DNA of 64,000 nucleotides from Planctomycetota bacterium (GTDB taxonomy: Bacteria; Planctomycetota; B15-G4): positions 160,001-224,000 of the forward strand of contig JBBQUR010000006.1 in the NCBI GenBank assembly GCA_038212275.1. Reading direction: 5' to 3'. The notes under the pieces were generated by a model that saw only the letters and a list, made by a program, of their open reading frames with translations, was not told the DNA's origin and did not search any database. Shown in pieces: positions 3,023-59,563 of this stretch. Made by a program: the position numbers and the translations under genes. Positions within the stretch are counted from its first letter, which is position 1. Each line of letters starts with the position of its first letter.

Positions 3023-11301
<8,279 letters not shown>

Positions 11302-35006: not shown

Positions 35007-35081
35007 CGTCGTTGACTTCCCAAGCCTGCTGCCGTATCCCACACGCCGGCGAGGCCCTCGCGGCCTCGAGCTGACAAACTA

Positions 35082-35212
35082 CACACGGCACCCTCCGCGA
35101 GCGGCCTTCACGGCTCGCGGGGAGCGCATGGGGGAACCCGGTGCAACTCCGGGACTGGCCCGCAACCGTAAGCCGCGCCGCGGCAAGTCGGATTGCCCAT
35201 GCCCGCCGTGGA
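35082..35212 (+). promoter_or_regulatory. Cobalamin riboswitch (compact form lacking the long P6 extension) upstream of btuFCD
   Basis: GGGAA-cccGGTGcAActCCggg-ACTG-cccgcAACcGTAA...AAGtcGGAttgCC core; closing cacgg/ccgtg stem; precedes a B12-type ABC transporter. Confidence 0.88.
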
Positions 35213-35235
35213 GACCTTCGGATGCAGGGTGCGAC

Positions 35236-36192
35236 ATGACATCTGCCCAAGACGCGGTGGCGCGACGGACCAGGCTGCATGCCTCGTGCTCCGCGCTCGT
35301 GGCGATGCTGCTGCTGTCGCTGCAGTTCGCAACGCCCGGCTGCGGCCGTGAGCCGGTTCAAGCCGCCGACCTGCACCTGCCGGCGGCGCCTCAACGCATC
35401 GTGCCCGCCAGCGCGGCGGCGGTGGATCTGGTGTGCGCCCTCGTCGGTCCGGAGCGCATCGCCGGGCTGCCGGCGCAAGCGCTCGACTACTCGGGCCTGC
35501 ACGCACGTGGCGCCGCGGGAGAACCCTATCTGCGCCTGCCCCAGTTCCAGGCCTACGCGGCCGAACCGTTGCTCGCGCTGGACCCCGACCTCGTGCTCGC
35601 GGACAACTGGCAGCTGGCCGACACGACCGCGCGCTTGCGCGAAGCCGGCGTGCCCGTGCTCGCTCTCACGGCACTCGAATCGTATCGGGACGTGCGGTCG
35701 AGCGTCACGCTCCTGGGCGAGGCGCTCGGCGTGCCGGAGCAGGCGCGCCTCGTCGTCGCGGATCTCGATGCGCGCGTGGATGCGCTGAAGTCCAGCGGCG
35801 GGCAGCGTGCGGGACACACCGTGCTGGCCTACAGCAATGGCGGCGCGGGCGGGTGGGTTGCAGGCGCCGGCACCGCGGCTGACGAGTGGATCCGTCTTGC
35901 CGGCCTGAAGAATGCAGCCGCCGATCGCGTGGGCCACCAGCGCTGCAGCTTCGAGGAACTTCTCACGCTGGACCCCGACCTGCTCGTGGTGAGCGGTCCG
36001 GGCAACTTCGATCGCAAGGGCGCCACCGAGCGCCTGCTGCGAGAGGAACCCGCGCTCGGCGGCCTGCGCGCGCTCGCCGGCCAACGCGTCATCGTGCTGC
36101 CCGCGTGGCTCTACGACACGGCGAGCCAGCACATCGTGTCGGCGGCCGAGGCGCTCGCGCAGGGAGCCGATCGCGCGCTGGGTGGGTCGTGA
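35236..36192 (+). CDS. btuF: Cobalamin ABC transporter substrate-binding protein
   Basis: PQRIV, EPLLALDPDLVL, SFEELLTLDPD (Peripla_BP_2); riboswitch upstream. Confidence 0.82.
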   Translation: MTSAQDAVARRTRLHASCSALVAMLLLSLQFATPGCGREPVQAADLHLPAAPQRIVPASAAAVDLVCALVGPERIAGLPAQALDYSGLHARGAAGEPYLRLPQFQAYAAEPLLALDPDLVLADNWQLADTTARLREAGVPVLALTALESYRDVRSSVTLLGEALGVPEQARLVVADLDARVDALKSSGGQRAGHTVLAYSNGGAGGWVAGAGTAADEWIRLAGLKNAAADRVGHQRCSFEELLTLDPDLLVVSGPGNFDRKGATERLLREEPALGGLRALAGQRVIVLPAWLYDTASQHIVSAAEALAQGADRALGGS

Positions 36193-44366: not shown

Positions 44367-44509
44367 GGTGCGACCATCATGGCCGCTGCGCCGCCCGCGA
44401 TGAAGCGCCGTCAGCAGCACGTCGCCGCTCCGCATCCGGGATTGACCCTGACGCTGCCGTGTGCGAGAACGTCCCGGTCCGGTCGGGAGCCGGGCATGAT
44501 CTTTTTACA

Positions 44510-44725
44510 ATCCGTCGAGTTTGCCGGCCCTTGGGAAGACGGTGCGAATCCGTCACGGTCCCGCCGCTGTATGCGGAGTCAAAGGGCGCCAGGTGTTGTC
44601 GCAAGCGGTCTCACGACGGCGCGCGACGGACTCCAGTCACTGCTGGCCAGCGAGGATCTCCTCGCGTCCGCCGGCGGGAAGACGCGCCCCGAGGTCAATC
44701 CGCGAGTCAGAACACCTGGCCGATG
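44510..44725 (+). promoter_or_regulatory. Cobalamin riboswitch (full-length AdoCbl/class I type)
   Basis: GGGAAgaCGGTGcgAATCCGtcACgGtCCCGCCGCTGTa ... GtCACTG ... GGGAAGaC ... GAGtCAGAAcACCTGgC (B12 box). Confidence 0.93.
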
Positions 44726-44785
44726 AACGTTCACTCCGTCCCCGGATATGGGATCGGCGTGAATCGTCCGTTGGTGAAGACAAGA

Positions 44786-48882: not shown

Positions 48883-49479
48883 ATGACCAGCTCCGCACCG
48901 GACGACCGAGACCGCCTGGCCGCCGTCGTGCGCGGAGACGGGGATGCCCTCGATGCCTGGTATCGCCATGAACACCCCGTCGTGCACCGCCTGTGCACCG
49001 GCTTCCTCGCGAACACCGCGGAGGCCGACGACGCCACGCAGGACGCGCTGCTGGCGCTGCTGGACAGCCTGCCGCGTTGGGACAGCGCGCGCGACTGGCC
49101 GCGCTGGCGCAACACGATCGTGCTCAATCACTGCCGCGATCGTCTGCGGCGTCGGCAGGCGCGCAGCCGCGCCGAGGATGCCGGCGCGCGGCACGCGCCA
49201 CCGGCCGCGCTGCCGGCGCCCGACGACCTCGCCGCCGCGCGCGAAGTCCGGGAGGTGCTGATGTCCGTACTCGTCGAGCTGTCACCGCGCGAGCGCGAGG
49301 TCTTCGTGCTGCGCGACCTGCAGGGCGAAGCCGGCGCCGACGTCGCCGCCGCGATGGGCATCGGCGAGAGCAGCGTGCGCTCATTGCTCACGCTGGCGCG
49401 GCGCCGCCTGCGTCGCCTGCTCGAAGAGCGCGCGCCGGGCCTCTGCCCGCTGCCGCTCGCCGGAGCGCGCGATGACTGA
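48883..49479 (+). CDS. ECF RNA polymerase sigma-70 factor
   Basis: EADDATQDA (region 2), NHCRDRLR, LSPREREVFVLRD...VAAAMGIGESSVRSLL (region 4). Confidence 0.9.
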   Translation: MTSSAPDDRDRLAAVVRGDGDALDAWYRHEHPVVHRLCTGFLANTAEADDATQDALLALLDSLPRWDSARDWPRWRNTIVLNHCRDRLRRRQARSRAEDAGARHAPPAALPAPDDLAAAREVREVLMSVLVELSPREREVFVLRDLQGEAGADVAAAMGIGESSVRSLLTLARRRLRRLLEERAPGLCPLPLAGARDD

Positions 49480-50107
49480 CGCACGCCGCGATGACGACGA
49501 GCTGCAGGACGACGCGCTCGCAGCGTTGCGCGCGGCGTGGGCCGAGCTTCCCGTCCCCGCACCGACACGCGAGCTGGACGAAGAAGACGAGGCCACGCGG
49601 CGCGCCGTCGGCTGGATGGTCGCTGCCTGGCGCAGCCCCGAGGTCGTGGCGCCGGGTGTCGCGACGGCGCAGCACGCGCCGCTCGCGCTGCACGCAATGC
49701 TCGCGCTGCACGCAATGCAGGCGCGGGACGCAATGCACGCGCGGCACGCCCGGCTCGCGCGGCACCCAGACGCGGACCACGACGCTCCGCGGCTGACCGG
49801 CTGGCGCCGCCAGGTTGCCGCGGCCGCGCTCATCCTCGCGCTGCTCGGCGCCGCGCTGATGCTGCGCGACGTGCCCGGCCTCGACGCGGGCCGGCCGACG
49901 CCGGGCGAGGCCGGCCCCGTGGCGGCGGGCGATCCCCGCGCCGAGCCGGCGCCCTCGGCGCTGTCCTCGCCGGCATTCACGTCGCCGCCCGCCACGCTGC
50001 CGCTGCTGGCATCGGCGAGCCCGCCCCCCATCGAGCTGCGCGCCGGTCACACGCGCGTGCTGCTGTTCACCGAATCCACCCGCCGTACCCAGGAGATCCA
50101 ACCATGA
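49472..50107 (+). CDS. Putative anti-sigma factor (single TM)
   Basis: Overlaps sigma stop; TM VAAAALILALLGAALML; internal ALHAM repeats. Confidence 0.6.
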   Translation: MTDARRDDDELQDDALAALRAAWAELPVPAPTRELDEEDEATRRAVGWMVAAWRSPEVVAPGVATAQHAPLALHAMLALHAMQARDAMHARHARLARHPDADHDAPRLTGWRRQVAAAALILALLGAALMLRDVPGLDAGRPTPGEAGPVAAGDPRAEPAPSALSSPAFTSPPATLPLLASASPPPIELRAGHTRVLLFTESTRRTQEIQP

Positions 50108-51156
50108 CCTGCCGCGTCCTTGCTCCATGCATCTTCGTCCTCACGCTGCTGGCCGCCGCGCTTCCCTGCCCCGCGCAACAGGCAGGCGCCACGCCGTCGA
50201 ATGTCGCGGAGGTTGCCGCCACGCCGGTCGTCAGCGACTCCCGCGAAGCGCCCGTGTTCAACGCCGCCGACGTGGCGGTGCGCTACGTCCGCGTCGACAA
50301 CGACTGGAGCCGCGTCACTCAGGCGCTCTCGGCGCAGGCTGAGCGCCGCTTCTTCGTGCGTGGCGCCGACGGAGCCGTGAGCGGCCCCTACAAGAACGTC
50401 GACAACTTCGGCAGCGTGATCGTCCTGCACGATCACGTATCGCTGCTGCCGGAGCTCGAGGCCACGCTGGCGCAGCTCGTCGAGGTCACGGCGGCACCGC
50501 CGGAGACGCGCGAGCCGTTGCAGGTCATCGAGTACAGGCCGCGGCACGAGGCCGTGAGCAGCCTGCTGCGCGCGCTGGAACCCTTCGCGCGCCGGATCGC
50601 GAACAACTCCGACGACTCCGGGCTGGGCACGACCGCCGTGAGCAACGTCACGATGCTGCCGGAGGCCGGCGTCCTCGTGCTGCGCGACACGGCGGCGCGC
50701 CTGGCAGAGATGCAGAACCTGCTGGCGCGGATCGACGTGCCCGCGCCGCAGGTGATGCTCACCTGCCTGCTCATCCAGGATGTCCCCGAGGCCGACGGCG
50801 CAGACGCAACGGCCGGCCTGCCAGGGGACCTGGTGGCCGACCTCCGCCAGCTACTGCCCATCCACGGACTGGCCCGCGTGGGGCAGGCCGCGCTGCGCAT
50901 CGCGGTGGTTCCCGGCAGCAAGGTCAGCCTCACTGGCAAGCTCGAATCGGGACAGAACTTCGAGCTGAGACTCGAGCCGACCGGCTACGACCGCGAGAAA
51001 GGCAGCCTTTCGGTCACGCAGTGCACGCTGCGCCTCGACGAGGACGCCTTGTTCACGACGAGCGCGGTGCTGGCGGCCGGCGAGCACACGGTCCTGGGCG
51101 CCTCGGGCAAGCAGCCGCTTTTCGTCGTGCTGCGCGTGGTGCCGCTCGACGACTGA
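50104..51156 (+). CDS. Exported protein with secretin-N (NolW-like) repeats, no secretin barrel
   Basis: Signal peptide; VLVLRDTAARLAEMQNLLARIDVPAPQVML; ATGA coupling. Confidence 0.65.
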   Translation: MTCRVLAPCIFVLTLLAAALPCPAQQAGATPSNVAEVAATPVVSDSREAPVFNAADVAVRYVRVDNDWSRVTQALSAQAERRFFVRGADGAVSGPYKNVDNFGSVIVLHDHVSLLPELEATLAQLVEVTAAPPETREPLQVIEYRPRHEAVSSLLRALEPFARRIANNSDDSGLGTTAVSNVTMLPEAGVLVLRDTAARLAEMQNLLARIDVPAPQVMLTCLLIQDVPEADGADATAGLPGDLVADLRQLLPIHGLARVGQAALRIAVVPGSKVSLTGKLESGQNFELRLEPTGYDREKGSLSVTQCTLRLDEDALFTTSAVLAAGEHTVLGASGKQPLFVVLRVVPLDD

Positions 51157-51210
51157 GCTTTGTGCTCGACGCTTGACAGACGTGCGGGGGGCGTGCTGAT
51201 CTGTATCGGC

Positions 51211-51591
51211 ATGTCCCCCCGCACTCCCTCGCTGCTGCGCTGGCTCCGTATCGCGGTTGCCGCGCTGGTGCTCTTCGGCGGCGAGGACCTTCACGAGCTG
51301 CTGCACAGGCAGAATTGGTCGGTTCCTGCAGGCGGAAACGCGGCCAGCGGCCAGCTCGAACTCCACGCGGGTGCATGCCAGTTCGGGCAGTCAACGCACG
51401 AGCTGCACTGCCATGCCTGCCTGCTCTGCAAGACCGCTCAAGCTCACGACCTGCTGCTTCCCGTCGACGGCACCGCATGGGTGTCGACCGGCGCGGCGCC
51501 TGCTTTCGTGTGCGACACCACGACCTGCGTGTCGCCCCTCGACCTTCCTGGAACGCTCGGGGCCCGCGGGCCTCCCGTGACATCGGCCTGA
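51211..51591 (+). CDS. DUF2946-like His/Cys-rich leader protein ending in RGPP (putative metal-responsive arrest peptide)
   Basis: N-terminal hydrophobic segment, LHELLH, HELHCHACLLCK, C-terminal ARGPPVTSA*; TTGACA at 51173. Confidence 0.75.
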   Translation: MSPRTPSLLRWLRIAVAALVLFGGEDLHELLHRQNWSVPAGGNAASGQLELHAGACQFGQSTHELHCHACLLCKTAQAHDLLLPVDGTAWVSTGAAPAFVCDTTTCVSPLDLPGTLGARGPPVTSA

Positions 51592-51616
51592 CCCTTTCGT
51601 CGCGCGGTCGCCCGCG

Positions 51617-51690
51617 CCGCCCACTTCGAGTGGTGCGGACGGAGTGACCCGCCGGTCACCGATCCGTCCCGGCACGCTGTGCGTGCCTTT
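51617..51690 (+). promoter_or_regulatory. Three consecutive hairpins between leader ORF and porin gene; last one terminator-like
   Basis: ccgcccact-tcg-agtggtgcgg; gtgacc-cgcc-ggtcac; ggcacgc-tgt-gcgtgcc-ttt. Confidence 0.5.
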
Positions 51691-51708
51691 GATCCAGGGA
51701 GTTCACTC

Positions 51709-53169
51709 ATGCATGTCCCATTCCGTACCCACGGCACGCGGTCTCCTCGTGCTGATTTGTCGTGCCGGCAGGCCCGGTCGTGCCTGCTGTTGTTGCTGGC
51801 CGTGTGTGCCGGCAGCCCGGTGTCTTCCGCGCAGGATGCGGCGCCCGCGGCGGCAGGGTCCGCTGCACAAAGCAACGAGGAGCTGCAACGGCTGCTCGCC
51901 GAGGAACGCGCGGCGCGCATCGCACTCGAGAAACGTCTCGCGAAGCTCGAGCTGAAACTCACCGAGCGGGAGGACGCCGATCTTGAAGCGCAGCTCCGCG
52001 GCCTCGTCGCGCCGGCCGATCTGGTCGTCGCACCGACGCGGACGATCTTTCCCAGCGCCGCCAATCCGCGCATCGGCGTCTTCATGGACTCCACCGTCGG
52101 AGTTGGAAATCTCAACAACGAGCTGGGCGACCCGGAGGGCAACAACTTCTCGCTGCGCGAAACCGAGGTCGACTTCAGCCTGCCGATTTCGCCGTTCGCG
52201 GAAGGCGTGCTGGTCGTCCCCTTCGAGGACGACGGCAACGGCGACTTCGCCTCCAGCATCGAGGAGGGCTACGCGAAGATCGGCCTCGGCGGGCTGCTCG
52301 ACAACGACTGGAAGACCGTCATGAAGCTCGGCCGCTTCCGGCCGCAGTTCGGGCGCAACAACCAGCTCCACCTGCACGACTGGCTGCAGGTGAATCAGCC
52401 GCTGCCCGTGCAGAATCTGCTCGGTCCGGAGGGGATCATCGGCAACGGCGCCAACTTCGAGATTCCGGTCGCGCACTTCGGCGAGACCGCCGGCGAGGGC
52501 CAGACCACGACGCTCAACCTGGCGGTCGTGAACGGCGACATCCTCTCGACGAGCGACGGCGACCTCGGCGCGCTCGCCAACAGCGAAGGAACGAGCCTCA
52601 ACTCCCAGGGTCCGGTCGCCGTGGCGCGGCTCTCGCACTACGTGGAACTGGGCACGCTCTCGGACGTCGAGGTCGGCGTGTCCACGCTGCAGCGCCTGGA
52701 CAACCAGGCCGTCATGACCGACTCGGGGGCGGAGATCAACCCGAGCTACTACGACGCGGACTTCACCTGGCGCAGTCGCGACGACGAGACCGGCATCGGC
52801 AGCTGGCTGGTGCAGACCGAAATGATGCAGACGAACGTGAACTACGGAGACTCCGGCATCGGAGGCAGCTCCAACAGCCAGTCGCGCGACGGCTGGTGGG
52901 TCACCGTGCAGCGCCAGATCACGCCGAGCACGTACATCGGCCTGCTCTACGCGGAGAGCGACGTGCTCGGCAACAACGCGCACGATGATTCCATCTCGCC
53001 CTACGTGACCTGGTATGCGGATGAGTTTTTCCGCGTGCGCTGGCAGGTGGACCGCCAGTCGCAGAGCGGGTCCGGCAGCGACAACTTCAGCGATGCGTAT
53101 CGCGGGCTCATGGAAGTCACCTGGAACTTCGGCGCCCACCCTCCCCACCCCTACTGGGTCAACCGGTAG
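51709..53169 (+). CDS. Outer-membrane beta-barrel/porin associated with metal ABC uptake
   Basis: Signal peptide, coiled coil, NPRIGV, LRETEV, EEGY, GRFRPQFGRNNQLHLHD, C-terminal GAHPPHPY. Confidence 0.8.
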   Translation: MHVPFRTHGTRSPRADLSCRQARSCLLLLLAVCAGSPVSSAQDAAPAAAGSAAQSNEELQRLLAEERAARIALEKRLAKLELKLTEREDADLEAQLRGLVAPADLVVAPTRTIFPSAANPRIGVFMDSTVGVGNLNNELGDPEGNNFSLRETEVDFSLPISPFAEGVLVVPFEDDGNGDFASSIEEGYAKIGLGGLLDNDWKTVMKLGRFRPQFGRNNQLHLHDWLQVNQPLPVQNLLGPEGIIGNGANFEIPVAHFGETAGEGQTTTLNLAVVNGDILSTSDGDLGALANSEGTSLNSQGPVAVARLSHYVELGTLSDVEVGVSTLQRLDNQAVMTDSGAEINPSYYDADFTWRSRDDETGIGSWLVQTEMMQTNVNYGDSGIGGSSNSQSRDGWWVTVQRQITPSTYIGLLYAESDVLGNNAHDDSISPYVTWYADEFFRVRWQVDRQSQSGSGSDNFSDAYRGLMEVTWNFGAHPPHPYWVNR

Positions 53170-53180
53170 AAAGGCATCCG

Positions 53181-54191
53181 ATGAAAACACTCTTCACCAT
53201 GTTGCTCGCCGTCACGCTCGGGCCCGTCAGCGCCGCCAGCGCCGTGGCCCCGCACCTCGAGGCTCCGCAGCCGGCCCGCGGAGCGCCGCTCGCACCGCCG
53301 CCGCTCGCGCCGCCGCAGTCCGACGCTCCGCTGAAGGTCATTGCCACCACGCCGACGTACGGCGATCTTGCGCGCGAGATCGGCGGCGAGTTCGTGGACG
53401 TGATCGACCTGTGCCGGGCCACGCAGGACATGCACGCAGTCGGCGCCACGCCGTCGCAGATGGCGCGCATGCAGGGCGCCGGCCTTGTGCTGTACACCGG
53501 GCTGGACGCCGAGGGCTGGCTCGATCCCATGCTGCGCAGCTCCGGCAACCTGGCGCTGCTGCCCGGCAACGCGCGCTCGATCGCGCTGTCGGACGGCATC
53601 CCTGTGAAGGAGGTGCCGGCCGAACTGTCGCGCTCGAACGGCGACATCCATGCCTATGGCAATCCGCACCTCTGGGCCGACCCGCTCGCCGTGCGCACGA
53701 TGGGCGACCGCGTGAAGGAGGCGCTCGCCGACGCGCTGCCGGCGCACGCCGACGAAATCAACGCGCGCGGCACCGCCTTCCACGACCGGATCACGAAGAA
53801 GCTCGTGGAATGGCTGAAGAAGTACGCGCCCCTCAAGGGCAAGCGCGTGGTGACCTACCACCCTGCGTGGCCGTACCTGCTCGAGCGCTTCGGCCTGGAG
53901 CTGGCCGGCACGGTGGAGCCCAAGCCCCGCGTCGCACCAACGGCGAGTCACCTGGAAAAGCTGGTGGAAACGATCAAGTCAGAGCACGTGAAGCTCATCA
54001 TCCGCGAGCCCTTCCAGTCGCCGGATGCCACCGACTACCTTGCCCAGCAGACGGGAGCGACGGTGCTGGAACTTTCCACGCACCCTGAGGGCGGCGGCGC
54101 GGGAGATGCGATCATCAACCACTTCGAGGAGTCGCTGGCGGCGATTTCCGCCGTGGTGGACCCCGTCGCGCCGGCCACGCCCGGAGCGTAG
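53181..54191 (+). CDS. Metal (Zn/Mn-type, ZnuA family) ABC transporter substrate-binding protein
   Basis: QDMH, GDIHAYGNPHLWADP, YHPAWPY, EPKP. Confidence 0.9.
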   Translation: MKTLFTMLLAVTLGPVSAASAVAPHLEAPQPARGAPLAPPPLAPPQSDAPLKVIATTPTYGDLAREIGGEFVDVIDLCRATQDMHAVGATPSQMARMQGAGLVLYTGLDAEGWLDPMLRSSGNLALLPGNARSIALSDGIPVKEVPAELSRSNGDIHAYGNPHLWADPLAVRTMGDRVKEALADALPAHADEINARGTAFHDRITKKLVEWLKKYAPLKGKRVVTYHPAWPYLLERFGLELAGTVEPKPRVAPTASHLEKLVETIKSEHVKLIIREPFQSPDATDYLAQQTGATVLELSTHPEGGGAGDAIINHFEESLAAISAVVDPVAPATPGA

Positions 54192-54197
54192 ACGAGC

Positions 54198-54980
54198 ATG
54201 CCGAAGCCCATGACCGAAACCTCCGCCGCTCCGCTCGTGCGCCTCACGGACGTGAGTTGCGGTTACGAGCGACACGTGGTTCTCACGGGCGTGTCGCTCG
54301 TGCTGCGGAAGCGCCACATGCTGGCACTCGTCGGGCCCAACGGCGCGGGCAAGACCACGCTGCTCCGCACGCTGCTCGGGCTGCTGCCGGTGCGCGCCGG
54401 GAGCATCGAGTACGGAAGCGGCCATCCCCCGCGCATCGGATACGTGCCGCAGACCGACATCTCCGAGGTGCTGTTTCCCGTGACCGCGCTGGAAGTCGCG
54501 CTCATGGGACTCACGCCACACCTCGGGCTGCTGCGGCGGCCGAATGCCGCCGACCGGCAGGCCGCGCGGGACGCGCTGGCCCGCTTCGACGTGGCCAACC
54601 TCGCCGAACGGCAATTCCGCTCGCTTTCCGGCGGCCAGCGCCAGCGTGTGCTGCTCGCGCGCGGGCTCGTCGGCAATCCGGAGATGCTCGTGCTCGACGA
54701 ACCGGTGCGCGGGCTGGACATCGCCAGCTCCGCCACGCTCGTGCAGCTCATGGTCGACCTCGCCAGGCAGCAGGGCATCGCCATCGTCGTGGCCACGCAC
54801 AGCCTGGACCTCGTCGCCAACCATGCCGACGACGTCGCGCTGGTGCGGCACGGCACCGTGCGCGCCGGGCCGGCGCGCGAGATCATGACCACGCCAGTGC
54901 TCACGGAGTTTCACGGGCTGCCCGTGCACGTGCACGAGGTGGACGGTCAACGCGTCGTCCTCGCCGGGAAGGAACCATGA
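54198..54980 (+). CDS. Metal ABC transporter ATPase (ZnuC-like)
   Basis: GPNGAGKTT, IGYVPQ, LSGGQRQR, LDEP. Confidence 0.92.
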   Translation: MPKPMTETSAAPLVRLTDVSCGYERHVVLTGVSLVLRKRHMLALVGPNGAGKTTLLRTLLGLLPVRAGSIEYGSGHPPRIGYVPQTDISEVLFPVTALEVALMGLTPHLGLLRRPNAADRQAARDALARFDVANLAERQFRSLSGGQRQRVLLARGLVGNPEMLVLDEPVRGLDIASSATLVQLMVDLARQQGIAIVVATHSLDLVANHADDVALVRHGTVRAGPAREIMTTPVLTEFHGLPVHVHEVDGQRVVLAGKEP

Positions 54981-56455
54981 GCATGACGCACTGGCTCGAC
55001 GGCACGCCGCTGGCCGCCATCCCGGGCGCCACGGTGGCCGCGCTGATCGCGGGCACGCTGCTGCCGATGCTCGGCGTGTGGGTCGTGTACCAGCGCATCG
55101 TGTTCCTGGGCGTGACACTGGCCCAGGTGGCGGCCGCGGGCGTGGCGCTGGGACTGCTGCTCGACCTGCCACCGCTGCCGATGGGCTTCCTGCTCTGCGC
55201 GATCATGGTCGGACTTGTCGTGCGCGGCTTCCGCGGCGGCATCGGCAGCGGCGGCGACAGCGCGCTCGGCGCGGCCTTCTGCGTGGCCTCCGCGCTCGCG
55301 CTGCTCTTCATCTCGCGTTCGCCGTCCGAGGTCGAGGAGATCGAACGCGTCCTGCACGGCAACCTCATCTTCGCGCTGCCGGCGGACGTTGAGCGCGTCT
55401 CCATCGCACTGGTCGCCGGTCTCGTCGTGATCGGGCTGTTCTTCAAGCAGATCCTGTTCTCCGCCTTCGACGGCGAGACGGCGGCCGCGCTCGGGCTCCG
55501 CCCGCGCAGCTGGTTGCTGCTGCTCTTCGTGGTGCTTGCGATCGTGCTCACGCTCTCCATGAGCACCACCGGCTCGCTGCTCACGTCCGCGCTGCTCATC
55601 CTGCCGCCGCTGGCCGCGCTGCAGTTCCGTCGCGGGCTGAAGGCCAGCTTCGCGCTCGCGGCGCTGCTGGGCTTCGTCGCGACGCTCGCGGGACTGCTGC
55701 TCGCCGTCACGGCGGATCTGCACCTCGAGTCGTCCATCGTGGTGACCTCGTTCCTGTTGCTGCCTCTGGTGGCGTGCTGGAGAATCTCGCCCTTCCTGGC
55801 GCTCGCGCTGGCCGCGGGCCTGGCCTTCCTCGCGCCGCAACTTGCGCCGAAACAGCAGCCGCCGCTCGCGTCGCCGCATGCGGCCGTGGATCCCGCCGCA
55901 GACCTGCCGGACGACATCACCGCACTGCTGGCCGAGGCCACGAGAGACGAGGCCGGCGGTGCGGCGACTTCCGCGCCGACTTCCGTGCCGACGGCCGCGC
56001 TGGCTGCCGCGGCGACTTCCGTGCCGACTTCCGTGCCCGCGACCACCGATGCATCGCTGGCTCCGGCTGCGTCGCCAACCGACAAGGCGGGTCACCACTC
56101 CGAAGCGCTGCAGCTGCATCTCTTCGCGCAACCCGCCGCCGAAGCGAACTCCGTGGAAGTGAGCTGGACGCTCGAGCTGCGCCGCAACGTGCCGCCCCAG
56201 CCGCTGCCGCGCACGGTCTACCTGGTGACGACGGGTTGCGGCGTGACCGACGAGCGCGCCATCGTGCGCGACACCGCTCAGCTGCGACCGACCGACACGA
56301 TGCTCACCGGCGGCTTCACGCTCGTCGGCACAAGTTCCGTCGGTCCGATCGCCGGCCAGCTCTGGACCGGCCCGCGCAACGACGAGCGCTCGACGCCCGT
56401 GCCGAACTCCGTGGTGCTGCCATCCACAGCGCCGTCGGCTCACGGCCACCCCTAG
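54977..56455 (+). CDS. Metal ABC-3 permease (ZnuB-like) with a long C-terminal extension
   Basis: LGVWVVYQRIVFLGVTLAQVAAAG, LHGNL, FDGETAAALG, LILPP; then an A/T/P-rich linker and a soluble domain. Confidence 0.88.
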   Translation: MSMTHWLDGTPLAAIPGATVAALIAGTLLPMLGVWVVYQRIVFLGVTLAQVAAAGVALGLLLDLPPLPMGFLLCAIMVGLVVRGFRGGIGSGGDSALGAAFCVASALALLFISRSPSEVEEIERVLHGNLIFALPADVERVSIALVAGLVVIGLFFKQILFSAFDGETAAALGLRPRSWLLLLFVVLAIVLTLSMSTTGSLLTSALLILPPLAALQFRRGLKASFALAALLGFVATLAGLLLAVTADLHLESSIVVTSFLLLPLVACWRISPFLALALAAGLAFLAPQLAPKQQPPLASPHAAVDPAADLPDDITALLAEATRDEAGGAATSAPTSVPTAALAAAATSVPTSVPATTDASLAPAASPTDKAGHHSEALQLHLFAQPAAEANSVEVSWTLELRRNVPPQPLPRTVYLVTTGCGVTDERAIVRDTAQLRPTDTMLTGGFTLVGTSSVGPIAGQLWTGPRNDERSTPVPNSVVLPSTAPSAHGHP

Positions 56456-56659: not shown

Positions 56660-57220
56660 ATGGGAGCATTGACCTTCAGCATCAACGTCACCCTCGACGG
56701 TTGCGTCGACCATCAGGAGGGTATCGCCGACGACGAAACACACTCTCTCTTCACCCGCCTCATGGACGAGGCCGGGGCGATGCTGTGGGGCCGCATCACC
56801 TACGAGATGATGGAGAGCTACTGGCCGGCGGTCGCCCGCGGCGACGAAGAGGCGCCGCCGACGATGCGCGAGTGGGCGATCAAGCTGGAGGCCAAGCAGA
56901 AATACGTGGTGTCGTCGACGCGAACGGACTTCCCGTGGACCAACAGCCACCTCATCGCCGGCGACTTGCGCACGAGCGTGCAGAAACTCAAGGATGCGAC
57001 CCCTGCCGGCGTGCTCCTCGGTAGCGGCAAGCTCGCGACCGAGCTGGACCGGCTGGATCTGATCGACGAGTACAGATTCCTCGTCCACCCCAGGATCGCC
57101 GGCCACGGCCCGACCCTTTACCAGAGCGGGCTACCCGGCACGCGACGGCTCGAGCTGGTCTCGTCGATGCCACTTCGCTGCGGCGCCGTCGCCATGCACT
57201 ACCGGCGCGCGCGCGGTTGA
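56660..57220 (+). CDS. Dihydrofolate reductase / RibD C-terminal family protein
   Basis: INVTLDG, LWGRITYEMM, GSGKLA, LIDEYRFLVHP..AGHG. Confidence 0.9.
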   Translation: MGALTFSINVTLDGCVDHQEGIADDETHSLFTRLMDEAGAMLWGRITYEMMESYWPAVARGDEEAPPTMREWAIKLEAKQKYVVSSTRTDFPWTNSHLIAGDLRTSVQKLKDATPAGVLLGSGKLATELDRLDLIDEYRFLVHPRIAGHGPTLYQSGLPGTRRLELVSSMPLRCGAVAMHYRRARG

Positions 57221-57322
57221 CATCCGGTTGCGTGTTCGCGGCCCTGGACACCTGCTGGCTACCCATTGCCCGGGACCTGGACGTCTCGCATTGACGCAGC
57301 ACGACCTGCGATTGGGTCCTGA

Positions 57323-59563
<2,241 letters not shown>

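Follow-up and report, generated by a model that had tools for sequence, protein, structure and literature searches.

The DNA analysed here is a window of 64,000 bp from a Planctomycetota bacterium (assembly GCA_038212275.1, contig JBBQUR010000006.1, positions 160,001 to 224,000), and all coordinates are those of the window. It contains a short open reading frame (ORF), referred to below as the leader, which ends close to the motif RGPP and heads an operon specifying an outer-membrane porin and a cluster A-I ATP-binding cassette (ABC) metal importer (Table 1). On balance, the sequence of the leader and of its homologs tips the scales slightly towards an arrest peptide which senses a divalent metal, most likely zinc, and which would keep uptake switched on when the metal is scarce. 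That an arrest leader regulates this operon appears highly probable from the comparisons described below and, granted such a leader, that it responds to a metal appears equally so.

Table 1. Predicted features of the leader and its operon
Feature	Coordinates	Strand	Basis
Predicted sigma-70 -35 element, TTGACA	51173..51178	+	sequence; -10 weak
Leader ORF, 126 aa, DUF2946/CruR-like predicted arrest peptide	51211..51591	+	ORF call, conservation, profile
Hydrophobic helix (signal peptide or anchor, residues 12–22), then HELLH (His28, His32)	51244..51306	+	hydropathy, AlphaFold2, consensus
CLLC (Cys70–Cys73), predicted metal site	51418..51429	+	spacing, column conservation
Predicted anti-Shine-Dalgarno (anti-SD) strand, 9 bp helix with 51693–51701	51544..51552	+	
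RGPP codons, predicted arrest motif	51565..51576	+	motif and CruR analogy
Structured intergenic region, 117 nt, four possible hairpins; porin ribosome-binding site (RBS) AGGGAG at 51696–51701	51592..51708	+	
Outer-membrane porin, 486 aa: signal peptide, N-terminal coiled coil, predicted 16-stranded barrel, HxH, C-terminal GAHxPHPYW	51709..53169	+	
Cluster A-I metal-binding protein (ZnuA family), His85, His163, His227	53181..54191	+	PF01297
ABC ATPase (ZnuC/AztA/MntA-like)	54198..54980	+	family search
ABC-3 permease (ZnuB-like), long C-terminal extension	54977..56455	+	family search

The leader gene and its homologs

The initial annotation of this locus had reported a 126-amino acid product with a hydrophobic N-terminus, the motifs HELLH and HELHCHACLLC, and RGPP four residues before the stop, and each of these was recovered: HELLH spans residues 28–32, HELHCHACLLC residues 63–73 and RGPP residues 119–122. 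The hydropathy of the N-terminal segment is 2.55 over 11 residues, a general hydropathy value with no dedicated signal-peptide predictor behind it. A low-confidence AlphaFold2 model places helices at residues 8–22 and 25–36 and, with a predicted template modelling score (pTM) of 0.30, contains no compact domain. Among the aligned homologs the HELLH region has the consensus LHxxxH, and the Cys70 column is at least 90% conserved.

By itself the RGPP motif was dropped as evidence, because it is common in the junk frames of a genome with 70% GC: 322 of the 44,411 six-frame stop-to-stop frames have R[AG]PP among their final 20 residues, 52 of them together with CxxC. The comparative evidence is of another order. 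Alignment of the porin led to 74 loci in GTDB genomes, mostly from Planctomycetota, with a few from Myxococcota or Deltaproteobacteria, Nitrospirota, Opitutales and others; 69 were scored, the remaining five having insufficient sequence ahead of the porin. An ORF ending just upstream and carrying R[AG]PP among its final 16 residues was found at 63 of these (RGPP in 39, RAPP in 24), versus 20 of 2150 equally long control windows from these loci (0.9%), and A[AG]PP tails occurred at none of the 69. The leader motif is therefore real despite the chance level of the motif alone. R, P and P are invariant in the 63 aligned leaders, which were themselves chosen by that motif. Far more distant porin homologs in the same gene order have leaders with ARGPP or ARAPP too.

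Five of the six remaining loci possess a leader of like build, with tails APKTSPP (two), APKTPPP, IRSPP and SPRDPP, while the sixth, near a contig end, has a ZIP-family gene directly ahead of the porin. Leaders at three loci (L041:5428–5862, L042 ending at 5974, and L043:4986–5450) end in APK-T-[S/P]-PP and carry one Cys in place of CxxC; this tail is a possible undescribed variant of the arrest motif. Many leaders from the Tepidisphaerales (L058–L099) have a second hydrophobic stretch in the spacer, a CRGPP end and an HDxxNCxxH sensor.

A profile built without the leader returned it as the top match (E 1.6e-11) among 52,265 frames of the genome, and it was still found (E 6.2e-7) when its ten closest relatives were also withheld, the next-best matches having E values of 0.44 and 0.24. 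Neither the profile nor the pattern gave a convincing further copy in this genome. In 18 non-overlapping pairs of leaders the differences at codon positions 1, 2 and 3 number 483, 421 and 820, and the proportion of synonymous differences (pS) exceeds that of nonsynonymous ones (pN) in 18 of 18; the pairs were chosen by protein identity, so that those of low identity are biased, and in the closest pair the two proportions hardly differ (0.09 against 0.11). Taken together, these comparisons indicate that the 126-codon ORF is a real conserved gene. In a library clustered at 50% identity its profile matches 2,426 clusters at E≤0.001.

Scanning for Cxx[C/H] over the range of 40–49 residues before the Arg, so that a peak was not forced, placed the motif at 43–46 residues in 58 of the 63 leaders (40 CxxC, 18 CxxH), with a spacing of exactly 44 in 43 of them. 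Among the 150 best library matches, which were found by the profile and are thus non-independent, the spacing is 44 in 133, with 87 CxxH and 54 CxxC. In the leader itself CLLC lies 45 residues and CHAC 48 residues from the Arg, and it is the former which stands at the spacing seen in CruR (Bp2923), the DUF2946 arrest leader of Bordetella pertussis. There the distance from CxxC to the motif is 45, and five added residues strongly reduce the copper response (PMC9426467). The sequence between the Cys motif and the Arg is not conserved; a spacer fixed in length and free in sequence would suit a nascent chain measured from the peptidyl-transferase centre. Two points weigh against a metal-sensing arrest leader: five of the 63 leaders lack a second Cys or His at the right spacing, and the loci are related, so that these conservation figures, like the RNA statistics given below, overstate the case.

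Arrest of CruR itself has been shown, with a toeprint, and the same work describes RGPP as giving the most robust arrest in several contexts and as resistant to elongation factor P, and R[AG]PP as otherwise avoided in proteomes (PMC12992588). By analogy, the first Pro of RGPP would occupy the P site and the second the A site.

A search with the DUF2946 hidden Markov model (PF11162, gathering cut-off 23.7 bits), proposed in the initial annotation as a check, gave no match for the leader at E≤1, nor did a search of the genome with PF11162 recover this locus. Its homologs fared better, with six of the 63 above the cut-off and 32 matching at E≤0.5. The leader shares with the family a CxxC, a C-terminal RAPP-type motif, a spacing of about 45 and an N-terminal hydrophobic segment, and it heads a porin and a cluster A-I ABC importer rather than a copper-homeostasis operon. 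Judged from sequence, it is a remote relative of DUF2946 which fails the formal family test. The CruR-like logic suggested at the outset has gained comparative support, motif, Cys spacing and gene order all being conserved in Planctomycetota, Myxococcota, Nitrospirota and others; conservation of RGPP/CxxC upstream of orthologous operons was among the checks proposed in the initial annotation.

Promoter and RNA upstream of the porin

In 33 of 58 leaders, as against 5 of 58 controls, an in-frame start is preceded at 33–41 nt by a TTG[AC][CT] element, with a peak at 35–38 nt; a strict promoter scan found no site. Since the -35 element lies only 38 nt from the ATG, the transcript would be leaderless or nearly so, with no room for a 5' riboswitch. 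A known metal riboswitch was ruled out, an Rfam covariance search having given no match at this locus or at the leaders of 11 homologous loci. Elsewhere in the window Rfam identified cobalamin riboswitches at 35075–35237 and 44509–44737, the second preceding two genes for exported proteins (one LIC_13355-like) and a methyltransferase gene. Immediately before the leader (48883–51156) lie genes for an extracytoplasmic function (ECF) sigma factor, a probable anti-sigma factor and an exported Secretin_N-like protein. Seven of the close relatives also have the sigma factor gene and the Secretin_N-like gene upstream of their leader.

Three hairpins, the last with TTT, had been described between leader and porin. 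We find four possible hairpins (51602–51617, 51621–51633, 51637–51669 and 51671–51687), the last indeed trailed by TTT only, and in the minimum-energy fold of the free RNA the first two are replaced by pairing with the RGPP codons. An intrinsic terminator at the TTT hairpin was rejected, there being only three T residues and no such site listed by a terminator scan. This hairpin is a poor intrinsic terminator, the likelier RNA switch being a helix in which the 3' part of the leader covers the porin's Shine-Dalgarno (SD) sequence. The Pro-Pro codons are not the predicted partner here; the helix forms instead with nucleotides 27–19 upstream of the first Pro codon. The region from 51535 to 51720 folds with a z-score of -4.49, and 0 of 200 shuffles were as stable.

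This arrangement was compared across 59 loci, five of 64 having been dropped (three with long spacers, two without a clear start). The partners of the porin SD cluster around the first Pro codon, between 5 nt before it and 20 nt after it. A mask the size of one ribosome eased RBS opening by at least 2 kcal/mol in 31 of the 59 and a two-ribosome mask in 38, as against 7 for a control mask. Duplexes between leaders and their own RBS have an energy of -13.9 kcal/mol and those of swapped pairs -11.0 (0 of 20,000 permutations), while control segments differ by 0.6–0.7. The native pairing also beats the mean of synonymous shuffles in 44 of the 59.

The RNA results are not uniformly favourable. In 28 of the 59 homologs the one-ribosome mask gives less than 2 kcal/mol of relief, and in this genome it raises the cost of RBS opening from 10.9 to 12.3 kcal/mol, a value which falls to 5.8 with two ribosomes. 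The advantage over synonymous shuffles reaches p≤0.1 in only 17 of the 59, and Pro codons are by nature complementary to SD sequences. Opening the site in this genome would take a queue of ribosomes or steric hindrance, unless the control falls to Rho. Even so, the models make the anti-SD helix the rather probable main output of the leader.

Rho-dependent transcription termination following a metal-released arrest, as in CruR, is an improbable output, and the two are not exclusive. It would draw on the two Rho-family matches in the genome, on the failure of a single ribosome to open the RBS, and on the C-rich end of the leader: the median C–G skew is 0.16 in the last 60 nt of leaders, 0.13 in the intergenic regions and 0.04 in the porin genes. 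This skew is partly forced by Pro and Ala codons, and the pairing of leader and RBS is locus-specific across the homologs. In favour of Rho, CruR has the same Cys spacing and the same direction of control; against it, rut sites are unstructured (PMC9426467) and the region here folds very stably.

The porin, the importer and the sensed metal

The porin, which ends in GAHPPHPYWVNR, has no Pfam and no significant NCBIfam match, and its homologs are all named 'hypothetical' in their sources. Its AlphaFold2 model, built on an alignment of 60 sequences, consists of the N-terminal coiled coil and a barrel (mean predicted local distance difference test score, pLDDT, 86). The best Foldseek matches are the 16-stranded porins VhChiP and Omp32, and VIA-align gave OprP a Z of 26.9 (root-mean-square deviation 4.5, 317 residues aligned), DcaP 25.0 and FecA 13.7. 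At 486 amino acids, and with OprP so far above FecA, a TonB-dependent receptor (22 strands plus plug) was rejected, and the protein is a non-TonB porin as the initial annotation had supposed. With OprP/OprO, DcaP and VhChiP it has in common the 16-stranded fold (Z 23–27) and an N-terminal extension, at 9–13% identity; the conserved His motifs are its own, His221, His223, His477 and His480 being invariant in the alignment. In the genome of L013/L037 the porin match is split over two frames, through a frameshift or an assembly error.

The barrel is followed by a ZnuABC-like set of genes, again as first described. A ZnuA gene directly follows the porin in 71 of the 74 loci, and the other three end within 131 nt. 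In this genome only one PF01297 gene was found, the one downstream of the porin (E 3e-50, 171.5 bits). The last gene of the set encodes a permease with a C-terminal extension of about 215 amino acids (55800–56455) including a low-complexity Ala/Thr/Ser/Pro insert; eight permeases of the same family have extensions of 150–173 amino acids with 7–14 His, six of them detectably similar to this one. The extension may be an extra periplasmic metal-capture domain. Beyond the operon (56660–59563) are a RibD_C-domain gene and a 731-amino acid ORF, which we take, by recognition of its sequence, to be catalase-peroxidase-like. At L039 a ZIP-family gene (133–1041) precedes the porin, and a second leader-like ORF rich in His and Cys (5821–6282) lies downstream of the ABC genes.

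The predicted ligands of the binding protein are conserved throughout (His85 in 71 of 71, His163 in 71 of 71, His227 in 70 of 70), and His227 aligns with a His of Lmb. Manganese-type cluster A-I proteins carry Glu at the third ligand position. When the C-terminal half of the protein is compared with known structures, the first manganese-labelled one ranks 22nd of 31, after Lmb, ZnuA, AdcA and related chains. The sensor region of the leaders, the 45 residues before the first Cys, is 12–13% His and less than 1% Met. We also count for zinc the single locus with a ZIP-family gene before the porin.

The promoters supply a further indication. The palindrome ATGCAA-N5-TTGCAT occurs at the leader promoter in five of the 59 loci (L058, L061, L071, L090 and L093, related Phycisphaerae), with five other matches in 637 kb and a background of 0.003 per search window. 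The predicted Zur box of Desulfovibrio znuABC-zur has the same outer 12 bases (PMC545781), which suggests two layers of control in some Phycisphaerae. As the palindrome occurs together with the leader, a genome may have repressor and leader side by side, and this restricts the idea of the leader replacing Zur. The only Fur-family protein of this genome, which is 91% complete, scores 104 bits as Fur versus 52 as Zur, and a search for the C-terminal domain of DtxR/MntR found none. Among 41 relatives, 39 have one to four Fur-family matches, which are unclassified, so that lineage-wide loss of Zur is not shown.

It is because of the zinc-type relatives of the binding protein, the His-rich and CxxH-containing sensors, and the Zur-like boxes at five of 59 loci that sequence evidence favours zinc over Mn, Co, Ni or Cu; the early suggestion of a different metal from that of CruR can be sharpened accordingly. 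Granted a metal-sensing arrest leader, zinc is likely to be the metal.

Several facts pull away from zinc. In the binding protein the residue at the fourth metal-ligand position varies, and with the whole protein manganese-labelled structures rank 5th and 9th–11th. The palindrome was noticed after the fact in five related loci and is absent at this one, where one type of Zur box was scanned for. Cluster A-I proteins as a class carry Zn, Mn or Fe (PMC8811889), and the only DUF2946 leaders tested experimentally, CruR and CutF, both sense copper.

That the arrest sensor answers to another metal (Ni, Co, Mn, Fe or Cu), or to several, seems to us more improbable still than a Rho-based output. Such a sensor would be in keeping with the copper-sensing Cys motifs of CruR and CutF and with the family assignments of the importer, the NCBIfam scores for AztC and MntC both falling far below cut-off and MntA and AztA tying for the ATPase. 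His-only relatives of CutF, for which sensing of Ni or Co is proposed, precede HupE/UreJ Ni/Co genes (10.1101/2022.11.11.516240). Against it stand the three invariant His, the zinc-type structures, a Met-poor, His-rich sensor with CxxH, the Zur-like boxes and the ZIP neighbour. In addition, of 43 candidate downstream ORFs the 35 scanned showed no Cu, Ni or Co family, and no shared metal-specific family beyond the ABC-3 permeases.

Proposed mechanism and comparison with known systems

The evidence can be assembled into the following scheme. Transcription would begin at the leader from its own sigma-70 promoter, and the translating ribosome would stall once the P and A sites are occupied by Pro-Pro. 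At that point the Cys pair would have only just emerged from the exit tunnel, with the His-rich part lying beyond it. Stalled ribosomes, here probably a queue of two, would block pairing of the leader 3' end with the porin SD, so that the operon is on, and they may also shield the RNA from Rho. Metal bound by His and Cys would fold the nascent chain and pull it free, whereupon the ribosomes would run off, the anti-SD helix re-form and the porin and importer be turned off; both would thus be made only under metal scarcity. The metal may be read in the cytoplasm or in the periplasm, as CruR needs no signal sequence and CutF does. A fuller version, with a zinc-sensing arrest switch on a leaderless mRNA, a protein counterpart of the so far undescribed zinc riboswitch, as the sole zinc control in planctomycetes lacking Zur, reading in this lineage a queue of collided ribosomes instead of a single one and serving a zinc-selective porin, we regard as doubtful.

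The same core motif and an N-terminal export signal are found in secretion monitors such as SecM, ApdA and ApdP, in which the pull of the Sec machinery releases the arrest. In such a case porin synthesis would be coupled to export capacity; the His and Cys residues would then be structural or redox-sensing, and CutF is indeed said to need its signal sequence and possibly to form disulfides (10.1101/2025.02.05.636593). We consider this very unlikely for the leader, since the downstream genes are those of a metal importer and not sec genes in 71 of 74 loci, and CxxH keeps the spacing although it cannot make a disulfide. A small exported metal chaperone without a cis regulatory role, for which the export signal, the His/Cys content and the place as first gene of a metal-uptake operon might speak, is scarcely credible given that no folded domain is predicted, that conservation is limited to the motif positions and to how far they lie from the C-terminal Arg, and that R[AG]PP is otherwise avoided in proteomes (PMC12992588).

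The metal-sensing arrest leader proposed here resembles CruR most closely (PMC9426467; arrest, PMC12992588). Both are encoded by the small first gene of a metal-uptake operon and possess an export signal, a CxxC 45 residues before R[AG]PP and a long GC-rich intergenic region, and in both the stall is expected to mean on. CruR heads a TonB-dependent receptor, with Rho termination demonstrated, whereas the leader precedes the genes for a 16-stranded porin and a cluster A-I ABC importer; it further differs in being His-rich, in the CxxH variants of its homologs, in RGPP, in its likely zinc ligand, in a predicted anti-SD output and in the lack of a DUF2946 match. CutF of Rhodobacter capsulatus, another exported nascent sensor of the DUF2946 type, acts as predicted here in that stalling melts RNA hiding the RBS of the next gene (10.1101/2022.11.11.516240, PMC9973294, 10.1101/2025.02.05.636593). 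It has CxxxC and PPP, and copper induces its stall to turn on a detoxifying oxidase, while an importer downstream would imply a stall released by metal. ApdA, ApdP, ApcA and SecM, likewise small exported proteins, have the same arrest core close to the C-terminus and, unlike the leader as proposed, monitor protein export (PMC12992588). Zur-repressed znuABC operons likewise encode a zinc-type cluster A-I importer (PMC545781, PMC4176598); control at the present locus would be post-transcriptional.

The literature holds scattered pieces of this picture. In the upstream-ORF survey of Fujiwara et al., similar pairs stand uncommented in the source tables, which include proteins labelled 'zinc-regulated TonB-dependent receptor' (PMC12992588), and the word 'zinc' is absent from its main text. 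In Caulobacter the Zur-activated efflux operon czrCBA-zntA is headed by a DUF2946 gene (PMC4176598), and fitness data tie DUF2946 to copper uptake (10.1101/072470). The part of a 2024 metallostasis review available to us (PMC11672702) mentions neither CruR, CutF nor DUF2946, and a literature search, which covered supplementary archives only in part, returned no demonstration of a zinc-sensing arrest peptide. According to Roy et al., neither copper nor zinc has a described riboswitch, and sensors of the nascent-peptide type may take that role (PMC9426467). Among the papers found, copper is the only metal with demonstrated cases.

A zinc version, if true, would bring a second metal, and whole phyla, within the reach of ribosome-based sensing, on a scale indicated by the clusters which match the leader profile. 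It would also account for znuABC operons that have no Zur site, as remarked for some delta-proteobacteria (PMC545781). The natural CxxC/CxxH and RGPP/RAPP/KTSPP variants form a series bearing on ligand set, spacing, metal choice and arrest release, and the porin is a candidate TonB-independent metal channel. Judged by its sequence, the layout is probably of the CruR/CutF kind with a different operon and a different metal, and as such an expected extension of these known systems.

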